From assembly GCA_964526165.1 (NCBI GenBank), contig CAZGKK010000001.1, positions 1 through 48,604 of the forward strand: 48,604 bases of DNA, given 5' to 3'. Each line of letters opens with the position of its first letter. Positions within the stretch are counted from its first letter, which is position 1. This stretch comes from an uncultured Candidatus Saccharibacteria bacterium (GTDB lineage Bacteria > Patescibacteriota > Dojkabacteria > SC72). Below, in pieces: positions 1,078 through 23,522 of the stretch. A model generated the notes under the pieces. The model did not search any database. It saw only the letters and a list, made by a program, of their open reading frames with translations, and had not been told where the DNA came from. The position numbers were made by a program, and so were the translations under genes.

Positions 1078-1815
1078 ATGCAAAAATTCTTTATCAAGCA
1101 CAAACTTTCAGTAGATGACATCACTCACCTTCCGGATTCGGATAGCCGAAATATAATTGAGAAGGGGGAGCTTGGTATTGAAGACTACATAGAAATAGAA
1201 ACATACGAAAGAAAATTCCTTGCTCAGATTACAGATATACATACAAATTCTATTGAGATTCATATTCAAGAAGATTTAGGAGAAAGAGAATCTGACTTTG
1301 TTCCAAGCATTACAATCATTCAATCTTTAAGTAATGATTCCAAATTTAACTATTTCATCGAAAAGAGTGTAGAGATTGGTATTGAGAAGATAATACCAAT
1401 TGAATCAAAATATTCTCTTAAAAGTAAAAACAAAGCAATAAGAGATACAGGTTTTTGGAATAAACTTGTTAGAGATGCAACCGAACAATCAAGAAACATT
1501 TTTCCAACAATCATTGAAAGACCAATATATCTTAAAGAAATTAGTAAATACAAATTTGAAAAAAATTCGATAAAAATATGTCTTGCAACTGAGGTAGATT
1601 CATCAAAACACCTAGACGAATATATACAAAACAAAAACCTTAAAGTCCCAATATATATTGCAATTGGACCTGAAAAAGGATGGGATATTACAGATATTGA
1701 TATTTTTCAAAAAAATAAATTTGATTTTGTAAGATTAAGAGGAAATATTCTTCGTACAGAAACAACTGGGTTAGTAATTGGGAGTATTTTAAAATTTTTG
1801 AAAGGTGAAATATGA
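1078..1815 (+). CDS. rsmE: 16S rRNA (uracil1498-N3)-methyltransferase RsmE
   Basis: 245 aa. IAIGPEKGW (the IGPEGG-type motif) and a C-terminal LRGNILRTETTGLV, both typical of the RsmE/SPOUT family. Confidence 0.8.
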   Translation: MQKFFIKHKLSVDDITHLPDSDSRNIIEKGELGIEDYIEIETYERKFLAQITDIHTNSIEIHIQEDLGERESDFVPSITIIQSLSNDSKFNYFIEKSVEIGIEKIIPIESKYSLKSKNKAIRDTGFWNKLVRDATEQSRNIFPTIIERPIYLKEISKYKFEKNSIKICLATEVDSSKHLDEYIQNKNLKVPIYIAIGPEKGWDITDIDIFQKNKFDFVRLRGNILRTETTGLVIGSILKFLKGEI

Positions 1816-5111: not shown

Positions 5112-5375
5112 CTATATTTTAAGCTTCTTCGCTAAGGTCGTATACCTTTCCTCTTCATTATCTTTTAGATACTGAAGCAATCTCCTTCTTTTTCCAACCA
5201 TTTGGAGTAAACCTCTTCTAGAATGATTATCTTTTTTATGAAGTTTTAAGTGCTCACTTAACTCTTGAATCTGTTTGCTTAACAATGCTACCTGAACTTC
5301 AGGGGAACCCGTATCACCTTCGTGAAGGGCAAACTTCTTAACAATTTGTGCTTTTTCTTCTGTATTTAGTGCCAT
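5112..5375 (-). CDS. rpsO: 30S ribosomal protein S15
   Basis: 87 aa. [17 protein letters not shown] and [29 protein letters not shown] are S15 hallmarks. Confidence 0.95.
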
Positions 5376-5476
5376 ATATTAACACGTTATCATTATATAA
5401 AAATAATTACAAGGGATTCTCCTGTCCGTGCATTGAATATTTTACAATACCTATAGGTCTTCTGTCAATAAGAAAC

Positions 5477-6901
5477 TTACAATATTGGCTTGTCTTCATC
5501 AGCTTCAGAGTGACTTTCAACTTTCTTCTTTCCAAAAAATTCAATCGCTGATCTTAACTCCTCTTTGTCTTTTGCATATTCTTCAAGAGGAATCTTCTGT
5601 TCCCAAGCTTCATATGACTGTAATACAGCCTTTGCTCCAGCCTTTGTCCCCATTGGATGAGAGTGAACTCCACCACCCATTGTTGTAATGAAATCAACAG
5701 TCCCGACAATATCCAAAAATTTACCTAGCAACACTGGATTCAACCCCCCCGAGATAATTGGGGCCATTTTCTTTACAATTCTCCAATAGCCAATATCTGA
5801 GTAATCTTGCCCTTCAGCTTCCTTCTTAATTGCATCAGCTAAATCTAAATCTTTTTCAGGAATCTCTGACCATATCTGATTAAAGAAGTCTCCTTTTGAA
5901 TACAATCGCAATGCGTGATTTACCGCCATGACATCCTCCTTTGGAGAACCCGCCATTTTACCTACTCCAGCAGTTCCTGTATGAATTCCAGATGCACCCG
6001 CCAACCTTGCAAATTTAGTTAATACTGGGACATTAAAACCAAAAGGGGCTTCATCTCTAGTAAAGGCTCCGTGTCCTGCCCTGTGGAAGTGTAAAAATAC
6101 TTCAGGATAGTGCCTTCTAATTGTTTGTACCGCTGTCCAGCCAGATGTTATACCATCAACTAAAAAAGCATAACTTCCGGGTTTCATATTGGATTTGATA
6201 TGCTCTGCCCTCTTTAACATCGTATCGTAATCTGCGGAGGATATATTAAAAGAGTGAACTTTTGTTTTTCCAGTTTCTTGCTCCACCCTATCCATTGCCA
6301 TTCTTACATCTACAACCATTTTTTCAAATGGGCAGAAGTCTTGATCTGCTTGTGGCTCATCATTCTTAACAAAGTCACCGCCACCAGACCAAAAATCGTA
6401 ACAAAGTTCTGCATATTCAGGAGATGTTAGACCTATTTTTGGTTTAATAATGGTACCTAGTACAGGTCTTTTCCCAATATTTAGATATTTTCTCATGTCA
6501 TCAATTGTGTAGTTTGGTCCGTCGTAATGAACGAGCATTTGTGGAGGAAAATAGACATCAAGGAGTTTGCAAATTTTTACATCACTCATACCAAGAACAT
6601 TGCCAACTAAAAAAGTTAGGATATTTTGTACATTCCCTCCGGAATCAAATATTCTCCAAGGATATGCTATCCAAGCCAAATTTTGAGTTTCATCGATTCG
6701 GTATACTACCGCGTTTAAGCTTTCTGAAAAAGGTGTGGAGGTCCCAATTTTTACATTTGAACCAGTTGAAGACTCAGCTGCAACTTCACTTGCGACATCT
6801 TCCAAAGAGACACCCTCATTACCTTTGATTCGAAAAACAGCTAAGAGATATTGTCCATTAAAAACATTGGGATTACCAATCTGAATATATTGTTTTTGCA
6901 T
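5477..6901 (-). CDS. rbcL: RuBisCO large subunit, form II/III- or III-like (no small subunit)
   Basis: 474 aa. Active-site motifs are all present: IIKPKIGL, GGDFVKNDE (carbamylated Lys and Mg ligands), HFHRAGHG, GIHTGT and MGGGVHSHP. No rbcS, PRK or carboxysome genes are nearby. Confidence 0.9.
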   Translation of the reverse strand: MQKQYIQIGNPNVFNGQYLLAVFRIKGNEGVSLEDVASEVAAESSTGSNVKIGTSTPFSESLNAVVYRIDETQNLAWIAYPWRIFDSGGNVQNILTFLVGNVLGMSDVKICKLLDVYFPPQMLVHYDGPNYTIDDMRKYLNIGKRPVLGTIIKPKIGLTSPEYAELCYDFWSGGGDFVKNDEPQADQDFCPFEKMVVDVRMAMDRVEQETGKTKVHSFNISSADYDTMLKRAEHIKSNMKPGSYAFLVDGITSGWTAVQTIRRHYPEVFLHFHRAGHGAFTRDEAPFGFNVPVLTKFARLAGASGIHTGTAGVGKMAGSPKEDVMAVNHALRLYSKGDFFNQIWSEIPEKDLDLADAIKKEAEGQDYSDIGYWRIVKKMAPIISGGLNPVLLGKFLDIVGTVDFITTMGGGVHSHPMGTKAGAKAVLQSYEAWEQKIPLEEYAKDKEELRSAIEFFGKKKVESHSEADEDKPIL

Positions 6902-6948
6902 ATTTTTGGCAGTTTAATTTTATCTATTAAGAATACAGCATCTAAAGT

Positions 6949-6968
6949 ACCAGGTCCATACCTCTTCC
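6949..6968. repeat. Inverted partial copy of the 7.1-kb repeat core, 47-67 nt upstream of the rbcL start
   Basis: Plus strand ACCAGGTCCATACCTCTTCC (6949-6968) is an imperfect reverse complement of GAGGTGAGGTTTGAACCTGGT (7127-7147 and 7221-7241). Confidence 0.8.
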
Positions 6969-7086
6969 TTGTAAATAAAGATTTAACAATTCCAAACCGT
7001 TGCCCAGTACAAAGTTTTTTCAAGTTCAAGCCACTGCCTTATCTAACAATTCTTCCTCAGAAAAACGCTTCGGTCAAGGGAGTCGC

Positions 7087-7242
7087 ATTAGAATGCAATT
7101 TTCTACATATTAACAGATGATGAACTGAGGTGAGGTTTGAACCTGGTCCTTTAGAAGAAAGGCGAGGTCTAGGAAGTTGTATTAGAATGCAATTTCCAAC
7201 ATATTAACAGATGATGAACTGAGGTGAGGTTTGAACCTGGTC
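7087..7242. repeat. Two direct copies of a 62-nt element (7087-7148, 7181-7242) separated by a 32-nt spacer, in the infB-rbcL intergenic region
   Basis: Read directly. attagaatgcaattTTCTACatattaacagatgatgaactgaggtgaggtttgaacctggtc versus the same sequence with TCCAAC: 2 mismatches in 62, period 94 nt. The second copy ends 1 nt before the infB stop codon. The spacer contains the hairpin CCTTT-agaag-AAAGG (7148-7162). Confidence 0.9.
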
Positions 7243-7243
7243 T

Positions 7244-8800
7244 CTATTGAACTCTCTTGTAGCAGTAAATTCCATCTCCCTCTTTTGCTTCTATTTGGTC
7301 GAGCAACTGAATCCCACACTCAAAACCATTTTTAACCTCATTAACCTGATCCTTGTTAATTCGAATACTCTTAATCTTACTCTCTCCAACAATCTCATCA
7401 TTTCTAACAATATATACCTTGCAATCCCTTTTAAGAATTCCTTTCTCTACCTTGCTACCATATATCGTAGTACCATCAGAAAGTGTAAAAATGGCTTTAA
7501 TTAGTGCATTACCAATCTCTTCTTCTGATTCTGAAGGCAAAGACATAGCTACAAGAGCTTCTTTAATTTCTTCAAAAATCTTGTAAATGATATCATAGTT
7601 CTTCACCAACACTCTGTTTTTCTTAGCATAATCGGCAACACCCGCTTCAGTCGGAACCTCAAAACCCAAAACAATTGCCTTCGAAAGCATAGCAAACTCA
7701 ACATCCTTTAAGGTAATGCTACCTACTCCGGAATCTAAAATTTTAACAGTATACTCATCTTCAACTATCTTATTTAAAGTGTTCTTAATTGCTTCAAGAG
7801 AACCCTCTGAAGAACTTTTAACAATAACATTCAATGTTCCACCTTCATCTTCTTTCTTTTCAGTACCTGCGAAAAAATCTTCTATACTTAACTCACCAAT
7901 TTCTTCAACTTCTTTATCAGTTTTCTCAAACACCTGCTCCAAAATTTTCTTATCATTTTTTTCTAAAATGTAGCCCTCAGTTCCTAACTCTAACAAATTT
8001 GAGAGTCCAATTATTTTCCCGCCACATCCACATTCAAGAAGACAGAGATTTCCACCATCCTCAGTTATTAAACCTTTAATTTTTTCAATATATAATTTCT
8101 CGTCAAGTTTGTAACCAAACCAATTCCCCTGACACAAGGAGCCTTGGACTAAAACAGTTGAGGAGATATTACCTTTAAAATTGTCTTTTACAGATTCAAG
8201 AATAAAAATTTTTCCTAAAATACCTTTTGGTAATTCAATATCTTTTCTCAATCCTTCAACTTCAGCGACTAAAAGAATCAAATCTAAAAGTTCATTTATT
8301 CCAGAACCTGTTCTTCCTGACACTTCAATTACAGGAATATTTCCACCAAGCCCCTCAAGCTGCAATCCATTATTTACAATGTCTCTCTTCACCTTTTCTA
8401 AATCAATGTTTGGAAGGTCGGTTTTGTTGATGACAACAATGGGCTTGACTGTGGATTTCTTAATAATTTCTATTGATTCTTTTGTTTGAGGTTGAACCCC
8501 ATCGTTTGCAGCAACAATTAGTAATACAATGTCAGCAATTGAGCCACCCCTTGATCTCATTAAATCAAAAGCTTCATGTCCTGGAGTGTCAACAAATGTA
8601 ATTGATTGATTCTTAGCGGATAATTGAACTGTAAAAACTGACACTTTCTGAGTAATACCACCAGCTTCTGAACTTTGCACATCAGCTTCTCGTATCCTAT
8701 CTAGAATAGTTGTTTTCCCATGGTCAACATGGCCAAGTATCGTGACGACAGGTGTCCTTGCCTTACATTCTTTAGTTGTACTTTTAGTACTTTTGACCAT
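7244..8800 (-). CDS. infB: Translation initiation factor IF-2 (compact form)
   Basis: 518 aa. The G domain starts at about residue 17 ([24 protein letters not shown]). Immediately downstream of nusA. Confidence 0.95.
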
Positions 8801-21740: not shown

Positions 21741-23522
21741 ATGGAAGAGGTCAGAAGAGTAACCACAACAAAAAAGAGTAACCGGTTAGTTAACACACTA
21801 TTAATTGTTGCTGGGGCTTTAGGATTGGCTTTAATCCTAGTGGCCATATATTTCTACATGATTAAACCCAACACACAGAAACCGCAAGTCACATCAAAAG
21901 TTTGTGTGTGTTACTATGTTGACCCAGCTGTTACCACTGAGTGTGGAGATCCAAGGAAAGGATTTCTTTTCAAAGAGGTAACTACGCAAGGGGATACTTC
22001 ATGTCAAAGTCAGTGTCAAACAAGCTCATTATCTATGACTGACATTGAGAGTAACACAAAGCAAGAGCTTTTCTTGTCCTGTTCTATGTCCAGTATTCAA
22101 GATACAAGATGTACCGAAATGACAATTTTGAACAAAGCCGGAAAAATTGTTGTTGGGAATATACCTGAAGATGAAGAAATTACTGTGGAAGCCAAATTTG
22201 ACAAGAAATATGAGAATCCAACATTCAAAATCAACAATACTAACGAAGAGCCAGATTCTATATCTGATGATGGCCTTAGTATAAAGAAAAAATTCTCGTC
22301 ATTTAAGACAACTACTCTTGATATTGTTGCAACTGCTGACGGAGAAGACGGAGAACCTATTAATTCGCCACTTTGTAAAAGATTAATTGAGGTAGAACAG
22401 AAAGGACAATCGTCCGTTACGGGTCTACTACTATCTAAAAGAAACACAGAAACTACTACAAAGATTTCTGAGGCCATCCTTAGGATATCAAATGTTACAG
22501 ATGCAAATGATATAAAGATTAGTTTCTCTTTTGACAATGAAGATTTCGCAGAATTAAGTATGATGAAAGGTTTTTCTCTCGATACTTCAAGAGGTGAATT
22601 CTCCATTATTGAACAAGATTTGTACAATTCAGAGAACTTTGTAGATGCAGTAAGTTTCTCCCAATTAGATGGATATATTGGAGAGCTTACTGTGAAAACG
22701 GAAATTTCAAGATTAGGTGCTTCTCTTGGAAGCGCCGAAGCAACAATTACATTTGACGAGCCTGAGACTGAACCAGAGGAACCAGAAGAACCAGAGGAAC
22801 CGGAAGAACCAGAGGAACCGGAAGAACCATTAGAATCGAATTTCTCAATTACAACTACAACCAACCTCACTTGTATTGAAAGAGTTGAACCAAATAATAC
22901 GATAATCTTTACTGTTAATATCAAAAACAATTCAACAATTTCTCAAAGTGTTTTAGGGATTACAGATAAATTACCCCTCGGTTTTACATATATTGCAGAC
23001 TCAACAAAAATCAATAACATAAGCATGTCAGATAGAAACTACTTAACGACTGAGCAAGTAGGTGAGACAACAGAGCTTGTATGGGAAACAGCTGATGGTT
23101 GGTCTATTGATTCAAACCAATCTTTAGTAATTGTTTTCCAAGCTATTGCTGGACCAAATGCACTCACCGGAGAAAACCAAAACGAAGTTGTAATTGAACC
23201 TGCTCAAGTTCCAACTGACCCAGCGACATTAAGAGCATCTTCAGCAGTGACTGTCTCTCAAAACTGTAATCCAACAGATGAGACTGAACAAACACCTGAA
23301 ACGGGAATCTTTGATGAAATAGCAATCCAAATTGGAGCCGGAATACTTGTCATTCTTGTAGGTTGGTACATACACTCAAAACCATTTGGACAATTACTTG
23401 CAAAAAAGGTAGTAAATTCTGGAGTTTTCCATGGAGCTGAAATGACATCTTGGAAATTATTCAAACCAAAGAAATACTTCGAAGAGATTACGATTAAGAA
23501 AATAAAGAAGAAAGGAAGTTAG
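21741..23522 (+). CDS. Surface protein with (PEE)n linker, DUF11-like repeat domain and C-terminal TM (the track start at 21726 is TTG)
   Basis: N-terminal TM (LVNTLLIVAGALGLALILVAIYFYMI) and a Cys-rich segment. PEEPEEPEEPEEPEEPEEP linker. DUF11-like block (ITDKLPLGFTYIADSTKIN). TPETG is followed by the hydrophobic helix IAIQIGAGILVILVGWYIH. Confidence 0.6.
   Translation: MEEVRRVTTTKKSNRLVNTLLIVAGALGLALILVAIYFYMIKPNTQKPQVTSKVCVCYYVDPAVTTECGDPRKGFLFKEVTTQGDTSCQSQCQTSSLSMTDIESNTKQELFLSCSMSSIQDTRCTEMTILNKAGKIVVGNIPEDEEITVEAKFDKKYENPTFKINNTNEEPDSISDDGLSIKKKFSSFKTTTLDIVATADGEDGEPINSPLCKRLIEVEQKGQSSVTGLLLSKRNTETTTKISEAILRISNVTDANDIKISFSFDNEDFAELSMMKGFSLDTSRGEFSIIEQDLYNSENFVDAVSFSQLDGYIGELTVKTEISRLGASLGSAEATITFDEPETEPEEPEEPEEPEEPEEPEEPLESNFSITTTTNLTCIERVEPNNTIIFTVNIKNNSTISQSVLGITDKLPLGFTYIADSTKINNISMSDRNYLTTEQVGETTELVWETADGWSIDSNQSLVIVFQAIAGPNALTGENQNEVVIEPAQVPTDPATLRASSAVTVSQNCNPTDETEQTPETGIFDEIAIQIGAGILVILVGWYIHSKPFGQLLAKKVVNSGVFHGAEMTSWKLFKPKKYFEEITIKKIKKKGS
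22761..22829 (+). repeat. In-frame 9-nt (gaaccagag/gaaccggaa) tandem repeat encoding (PEE)n
   Basis: Read directly in the 22761-22829 interval; encodes EPETEPEEPEEPEEPEEPEEPEEP. Confidence 0.85.

Follow-up and report, generated by a model that had tools for sequence, protein, structure and literature searches.

The window (the whole stretch of DNA analysed, 48,604 nt) belongs to genome G000, a draft of 579,764 bases in 52 contigs with a completeness of 89.6% and approximately 35% G+C. The genes of the region are read on the minus strand in the order dnaJ, nusA, infB, RuBisCO large-subunit homologue ('rbcL'), Rfam S15 leader, rpsO and pnp. The 'rbcL' gene lies in a nusA-infB-RuBisCO-rpsO-pnp block, and the genome is bacterial, not that of a plastid. 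For one protein of this genome, the closest homologues that carry a name are from 'candidate division WS6'. The spacer between infB and the RuBisCO gene covers positions 6902-7243 and is 342 nt long.

The RuBisCO homologue follows infB directly and takes the place usual for rbfA and truB. The same adjacency was found in all eight same-genus genomes (8/8) in which the locus of the RuBisCO orthologue reached infB. Other members of the genus carry instead only a RuBisCO-like protein, 31-35% identical. The orthologues of two relatives, G013 (L013) and G036 (L025), contain one in-frame TAG each, which could reflect a pseudogene, a sequencing error or recoding. The S15 leader match (5319-5429, minus strand; 41.8 bits against a gathering score of 39.5) covers the start of rpsO and lies directly 3' of the RuBisCO gene.

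Two 62-nt direct copies reported in the spacer by an earlier note, at 7087-7148 and 7181-7242, are present and differ by 2 mismatches (TTTTCTACA and TTTCCAACA). The full direct repeat is longer than that: two 90-nt units (Table 1) follow each other with a period of 94, and the near-identical 62 nt (60/62) form the 3' part of each unit. The 32 nt between the copies (7149-7180) and the CCTTT (7148-7152) and AAAGG (7158-7162) motifs described for them were confirmed by sequence. Unit 2 consists of a head, GAGGTCTAGGAA, followed by TAGAATGCAAT, ATTAACAGATGATGAAC and the core GAGGTGAGGTTTGAACCTGGTC. As had been noted, it adjoins the infB stop: the second copy ends at 7242, one nucleotide away from the stop codon.

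The inverted copy of the core near the RuBisCO gene also proved real, and longer than claimed: positions 6941-6964 pair with 7132-7155 over 24 nt with 88% complementarity, that is, 22/24 pairs when one G-U on the minus-strand RNA is counted. A second pairing joins 6949-6964 to 7226-7241 (16 nt, 88% complementary). In each of the two pairings, one of the non-Watson-Crick positions can pair as G-U in the minus-strand RNA, whereas the plus strand has a C·A mismatch there. The 16-mer ACCAGGTYCAWACCTC occurs three times in the window, compared with 0.06 occurrences expected from shuffles. The 12-mer pair described at 6981-6992 and 7041-7052 exists, with an 11/12 match, but its significance does not hold: by our estimate about 0.4 such pairs are expected in 342 nt, and several unrelated repeats are equally long.

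Taken together, an inverted arm, a non-conserved spacer and two tandem units of about 94 nt (7059-7242) fill nearly the whole intergenic region.

Table 1. Features of the infB-RuBisCO intergenic region and the adjoining genes (window positions).
Feature	Position	Strand	Description and evidence
infB	7244..8800	-	518 aa, upstream gene; stop codon 7244-7246 (CTA on the plus strand) abuts unit 2
Direct unit 2 ('R arm', RAYT 3'-end type)	7153..7242	+	nhmmer E 1e-21; aligned with 17 other arms
CCTTT-AGAAG-AAAGG small hairpin	7148..7162		unit junction; not kept in tandem arrays elsewhere (C7 and C2 compared)
Direct unit 1 ('R arm')	7059..7148	+	nhmmer E 1.9e-22; 87% identical to unit 2 over 90 nt
Central doublet spacer	6989..7058		differs between loci; contains the second 12-mer, 7041-7052 (chance level)
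Inverted partial copy ('L arm', RAYT 5'-flank type)	6941..6988	-	nhmmer match 6988-6944, minus strand, E 0.001
Promoter-like block near RuBisCO	6902..6958	-	spacer comparison and nine-genome alignment; putative promoter function
RuBisCO large-subunit homologue ('rbcL')	5477..6901	-	474 aa, downstream gene; ATG 6899-6901

In a search of the source genome itself, contigs C7, C2 and C27 proved to carry this sequence as well. When the 579,764-base draft was searched with fuzzy patterns and with an nhmmer profile built from the unit, 17 arms were identified at 7 loci, all of them between ORFs, and the core 14-mers are among the commonest non-simple 14-mers of the genome. Six of the loci, including the window (C1), share one layout: an inverted partial arm, a non-conserved spacer of about 45-170 nt and one to three direct units. 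The units, of about 91-96 nt, are arranged head to tail, with one at C5, C16 and C37, two at C1 and C2 and three at C7.

The genes next to these loci are unrelated and include RuBisCO, a YebC-like gene, a MutS-like gene, an 88-aa ORF and a probable translational GTPase with the motif AHVDHGKT. Three loci (C1, C7 and C2) have co-directional flanking genes, two (C16 and C37) have divergent ones and one (C5) has convergent ones. Since the neighbours are unrelated and occur in all orientations, the leader of one gene cannot explain the repeat.

Within the units of the window a palindrome inside a single arm is weak, consisting only of AGGTT-TG-AACCT. An 8-bp hairpin, GGGTGAGG-N6-CCTCACCC, is found in only some arms: it is present in the 5' flank of the transposase gene described below and in the L arm of C5, and degraded to about 6 bp in the R arm of C16. 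In E. coli-type REPs a conserved GTAG-type tetranucleotide adjoins the palindrome. No conserved tetranucleotide of this type was found beside the palindrome in the alignment of 18 arms.

At the seventh locus, on C27, the repeat flanks a gene. An ORF at 1173-1691 on the minus strand, coding for 172 aa, is bordered by inverted copies of the repeat core; the flanks form a 31-nt inverted repeat and were matched by nhmmer at 1222-1161(-) and 1710-1754(+). The protein matches Pfam Y1_Tnp over its full length (E 3e-10) and contains the HUH motif (NHYHF) and the tyrosine motif YIKHNP (within SYIKHNP).

The best NCBIfam model for this protein is REP_Tyr_transpos (NF047646), with 54 bits, under the equivalog cut-off of 80. 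Three RAYT-like paralogues are present in the genome, 34-47% identical to one another and each with different inverted flanks; NF047646 is the best-scoring family for all three, with 54.2, 33.9 and 75.7 bits, all below 80. The IS200 model NF033573 gave no match to the C27 protein and 16.4 bits for the C32 paralogue (cut-off, 55). More distant homologues of the C27 protein are labelled 'REP element-mobilizing transposase RayT' in their source. No relative with a solved structure was found by sequence at E ≤ 1. The other two RAYT-like genes are located at C2 6690-7136(-) and C32 4618-5025(-), with flanks of the GTCTGGCCTAGGCCTTCCCCTC type and the AACCTGTCCCAACTCTGTCCC type, respectively. The C32-type flank is also dispersed, occurring on C18 and twice on C25.

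The last codons of the C27 gene (..MDEQMITQGEV-stop) overlap its 3' flank. The direct units at C1, C7 and C2 align best to this 3' end, with 63-67% identity, and include the ..DEQM..GEV-stop codons; the direct units retain the last 11 or so codons of the transposase gene. The conserved TGATGAA of the units is thus explained as inherited RAYT C-terminal coding sequence. The inverted arms, in turn, resemble the 5' flank of the gene. Judged from these alignments, the doublets are both ends of the transposase cassette minus the gene.

These findings identify the repeat as the footprint of a mobile element and not as a dedicated RuBisCO control RNA. The infB-RuBisCO spacer most probably (we estimate about 80%) holds a non-autonomous REP/REPIN-like, RAYT-associated element in which one arm has been tandemly duplicated. 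This is the possibility that the earlier note had put second, a dispersed REP/MITE-like repeat: the sequence is not specific to this locus, five other loci have the same architecture, and the same repeat flanks a RAYT-like gene. The long-range pairing corresponds to the complementarity between arms expected of an inverted REP doublet, and there are two alternative pairing partners because one arm has been duplicated in tandem.

The two arm types correspond to the two inverted flanks of the RAYT-like HUH/Y1 transposase gene on C27. A mechanism can be proposed from what is known of REP/RAYT and IS200/IS605 systems. In single-stranded DNA the arms would take a hairpin form that the Y1 transposase recognises, and copies would enter permissive intergenic sites, presumably mobilised in trans by the C27 protein. 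The second unit of about 94 nt arose by local tandem duplication of one arm. Copies at different loci are only 50-70% identical in the alignment, so that recent mobility is no more than a possibility. Some doublets appear to be orthologous and old: one doublet is located upstream of the same gene (start ATGAATGGACAATTGAGA.. / ATGAGTGGACAGTTGAAA..) both in G000 (C37 547-752) and in G019 (349805-350019, L072), and is therefore shared by the two species.

When 40 relatives were searched directly with the unit as DNA, no convincing copies were found, only two matches of 23-28 nt (E 0.0066). The family diverges too fast for DNA searches across genomes, and flanks were therefore searched one by one within single genomes. 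Counting G000, 20 of 23 same-genus genomes contain RAYT-like genes, with one to five distinct paralogues in each, at differing loci in differing species.

The flanks of these genes share a common design in G002, G007, G011, G016, G017 and G019, a G+C-rich palindrome followed by GTTxAT...ATTTAAT, and their sequences are specific to each of these genomes. Searched within its own genome, the RAYT flank was found at one extra site in G002, at about eight sites in G007 and at at least 15 sites in the closed genome G019, where several are intergenic inverted doublets about 180 nt apart. With G000, a genome-specific pairing of flank and repeat was thus seen in four genomes. The C27-type gene is syntenic in G000 and G002 (dnaX-RAYT-ybaB-recR), with 63% amino acid identity between the two proteins and 76-83% for the neighbours. 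This fits vertical inheritance of a single-copy gene.

The orthologous sites in related genomes were found both empty and occupied. The infB-RuBisCO spacer is 63-94 nt long and free of the repeat in 5/8 same-genus genomes. In G016 it measures 256 nt and contains, directly after the infB stop, a doublet of the type that flanks the RAYT gene of G016 itself. In G006 an unlike insert of 240 nt is present, and in G017 (L014) the spacer is about 490 nt long with an apparent small ORF (start ATGCAAGAAGTTTTTTATGG...) where the repeat element would be. Among the relatives, G013 is the closest by RuBisCO identity (89%); it gave no RAYT match, and its sites are empty.

Other sites gave the same picture. 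The spacer upstream of yebC is short and lacks such a repeat in six relatives, whereas in G000 it contains the array of three units and in G016 a doublet of that genome's own type. Upstream of mutS, a whole RAYT cassette is found in G017 and G019 (589 nt between conserved flanks), while G000 has a 324-nt doublet of a sequence type unlike that cassette. This variation at orthologous sites indicates that elements come and go, reusing the same few intergenic sites.

The pattern at mutS, a whole cassette in relatives and only a doublet in G000, could also be due to loss in place. A full RAYT cassette would once have been located between infB and RuBisCO, and its gene would have been deleted, leaving the flanks, which were never mobilised in trans. 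The R units with their RAYT 3' coding sequence, the likeness of the L arm to the RAYT 5' flank and the differing loci of RAYT-like genes in differing species all agree with such a history. We consider it unlikely for the locus studied here, because six short doublets of the same layout would require six parallel, precise deletions, and tblastn of the central spacers found no transposase remnant beyond the C-terminal codons. In addition, the mutS-site doublet of G000 and the cassette in G017 and G019 differ in sequence type, and G019 contains many doublets and only three RAYT-like genes. Some doublets may nevertheless be relics of lost cassettes formed in situ and not copies mobilised in trans.

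The spacer was also analysed as RNA. The minus-strand RNA folded with z = -1.88 relative to shuffles and the plus strand with z = -1.77, both marginal; the inner doublet folded as DNA gave z = -2.85. The long-range helix is present in the minimum-free-energy folds, and the closing helix in both DNA and RNA folds. Thus the helix proposed earlier is real, but its stability lies barely beyond that of shuffled sequences on either strand.

With gathering scores, the Rfam scan of the window detected only the S15 leader mentioned above. A permissive scan of 6850-7300 returned only matches with E > 3, some of them to C/D-box snoRNA models. The C/D-box or k-turn look of TGATGA...CTGA was rejected as an indication of such an RNA, as these are the inherited RAYT C-terminus codons. 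A tRNA or tmRNA origin was likewise rejected, ARAGORN having found none in the window. No terminator-like site was predicted.

Across nine genomes, with or without an insert, conservation of the spacer is confined to the 50 nt or so that precede the RuBisCO ATG. The conserved block consists of TGGACC (reverse complement of 6953-6958), 17 nt and TATTCT (reverse complement of 6930-6935); an alternative -10 of the leaderless type, TAAACT (reverse complement of 6911-6916), is located 9 nt before the ATG. T(A/G)GACC-N17-TATTCT was found in 6/9 RuBisCO spacers and TATTCT in 8/9. As this promoter-like block lies 3' of the repeats, RuBisCO very probably has its own promoter, and only read-through from infB would bring the repeats into RNA.

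These results leave little room for the structured leader that had first been proposed, a locus-specific RuBisCO riboregulator or attenuator in which the downstream segment pairs with either upstream copy in mutually exclusive helices. Both alternative helices do exist in the sequence. However, the repeat is dispersed over seven loci with unrelated genes, not confined to one gene or regulon, and it is not conserved in orthologous leaders, five of the eight spacers being empty. The spacer matches no Rfam family, its fold is marginal and the promoter-like block lies downstream of the repeats. Two of the three observations by which the earlier note would have its leader refuted, dispersed copies and a lack of conservation in relatives, have thus been made, and the third, fold stability, is borderline. 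We regard a riboregulator as highly improbable.

In G000 the -35-like hexamer TGGACC lies inside the core of the L arm, and the element may therefore have replaced or supplied this hexamer. A wider role of this kind can be imagined, with the palindromic core (AGGTCTAGACCT / AGGTTTGAACCT) acting as a regulator binding site or a portable -35 before several genes. The spacing of T(A/G)GACC and TATTCT in the RuBisCO spacers is consistent with it, as is a TTGACC-17-AAGAAT match at 7077-7049 on the minus strand. Promoter-like matches are, however, no commoner than in shuffles (5 versus 3.6 ± 2.3), the conserved, promoter-like extended -10 of the yebC and mutS loci is not part of the arm, and neither the flanking of the transposase genes nor the convergent locus C5 would be explained. 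A promoter or operator module is thus a poor candidate for the origin of the repeat.

Conserved sequences were also noted upstream of other genes. The mutS-like gene is preceded by a conserved TGGTATACT, resembling an extended -10, at G000 C2 ~22660-22700 and in G019 and G017 (L040, L041). It ends 7 nt before the ATG, which suggests a leaderless transcript. Upstream of yebC the conserved sequence is TGTTAGAAT.

The location of the array next to infB raises the question of a co-opted cis-acting hairpin in infB read-through transcripts, which might serve as a 3' stabiliser of the infB mRNA, as an attenuator or insulator or, given that the repeat begins 1 nt after the stop codon, as a brake on termination of infB translation. 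Such cis-acting effects have been described for REPs in E. coli. At all three co-directional loci (C1, C7 and C2) the array of R units lies right against the stop codon of the gene upstream, and the doublet of G016 has the same position 3' of infB. The long-range helix (22/24 or 15/16 pairs) appears in the minus-strand minimum-free-energy fold, and its two wobble positions are G-U on that strand and C·A on the plus strand.

Against such a role, the plus strand folds equally well, no terminator-like site was predicted, the element is absent from 5/8 orthologous spacers, and it also occurs in divergent and convergent spacers, where this role cannot apply. The placement at stop codons could be accounted for solely by the small number of permissive sites in compact genomes. 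A cis-acting function thus seems rather doubtful as an explanation of the repeat; effects on infB or RuBisCO expression are possible as local side effects of the mobile element.

REPINs are doublets of REP sequences that form hairpins and are associated with REP-associated tyrosine transposases, RAYTs (Bertels & Rainey, PMC3116915, PMC3337134; bioRxiv 10.1101/2021.07.10.451892). [quoted passage not shown] The elements described here share with this system the extragenic inverted doublets with complementary ends (also at C2, C5, C7, C16 and C37), the transposase gene of about 500 bp, of the HUH/Y1 type, flanked by the same repeat in inverted orientation, and the single-copy state of each distinct RAYT with a repeat type of its own. 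Tandem arrangements occur in both, and the synteny of one RAYT in two species is a further likeness, again consistent with vertical inheritance.

Several features differ. The arms are recognisable over about 45-90 nt, in contrast to about 20-35 nt for REPs, and one of them includes the 3' end of the transposase ORF. Copies at different loci have also diverged more strongly than in textbook REPINs (50-70% identity). The doublets span 200-300 nt, compared with 89 bp for the REPIN example of P. fluorescens SBW25. The copy number is low, with approximately seven loci in the draft and not the tens to hundreds of classical REPINs. A single arm, and not a whole REPIN, was tandemly duplicated; the transposases score under the NCBIfam RAYT equivalog cut-off; and the host is not a proteobacterium but a CPR bacterium (Dojkabacteria/WS6-type) with a genome of about 0.6 Mb.

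Other known systems were also compared. The transposase belongs to the same superfamily (Pfam Y1_Tnp) as those of IS200/IS605 elements, whose MITE-like derivatives are likewise short, non-autonomous and made from element ends, with a presumed hairpin-based single-strand mechanism. Unlike IS200/IS605, each flank repeats the other in inverted orientation, the IS200 model leaves the C27 protein unmatched and gives its paralogue 16 bits, and the paralogues are divergent single-copy genes instead of several near-identical copies. The clustering of units in one intergenic region by gene ends is reminiscent of E. coli BIMEs, in which REP orientation alternates and short linker motifs are found. The cluster in the window consists instead of a head-to-tail duplication of an arm of about 94 nt with a single inverted partner.

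The element is therefore of a known kind, REPIN/RAYT-like, and what is new is a member in a CPR lineage. No paper clearly linking RAYTs or REPINs with Patescibacteria was found in the literature searched. In this lineage, genomes of 0.6-0.8 Mb contain one to five RAYT-like genes each, every one with its own hairpin-repeat family, which bears on the persistence of such replicators under extreme genome reduction. Notably, the same intergenic sites are occupied repeatedly, in one species or another, by repeats of different types. The elements should be useful for intergenic annotation of CPR genomes and as strain markers, and their recognition removes a false lead, as no RuBisCO-specific riboregulator is located here.

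A bolder suggestion, for which we would claim only a slim chance, is that ultra-small Dojkabacteria genomes keep several co-evolving lineages of RAYTs and REP doublets at a few recurrent intergenic sites, after infB and upstream of yebC and of mutS, with the arms co-opted as gene-boundary elements. Such arms might, for example, end or stabilise the infB message or supply the -35 hexamer of the RuBisCO promoter. If this were true, a 'selfish' repeat would have become a component of gene-expression architecture in an otherwise minimal genome.

Two further observations concern the sites themselves. An insert of another kind, 0.6-1.1 kb long and with a small ORF, was found upstream of yebC at L086 (G011), L089 (G006) and L091 (G004); it bears a CCCCATAGT(A/G)TGGTATAATAT motif, with the variant CTCCATAGCAAGATATAATAT in G004, and the L089 sequence includes a run of N. 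At the repeat junction of the window (7244-7252), infB of G000 ends in ..KRVQ-stop, compared with ..YKKV-stop in its relatives, and has one extra codon.
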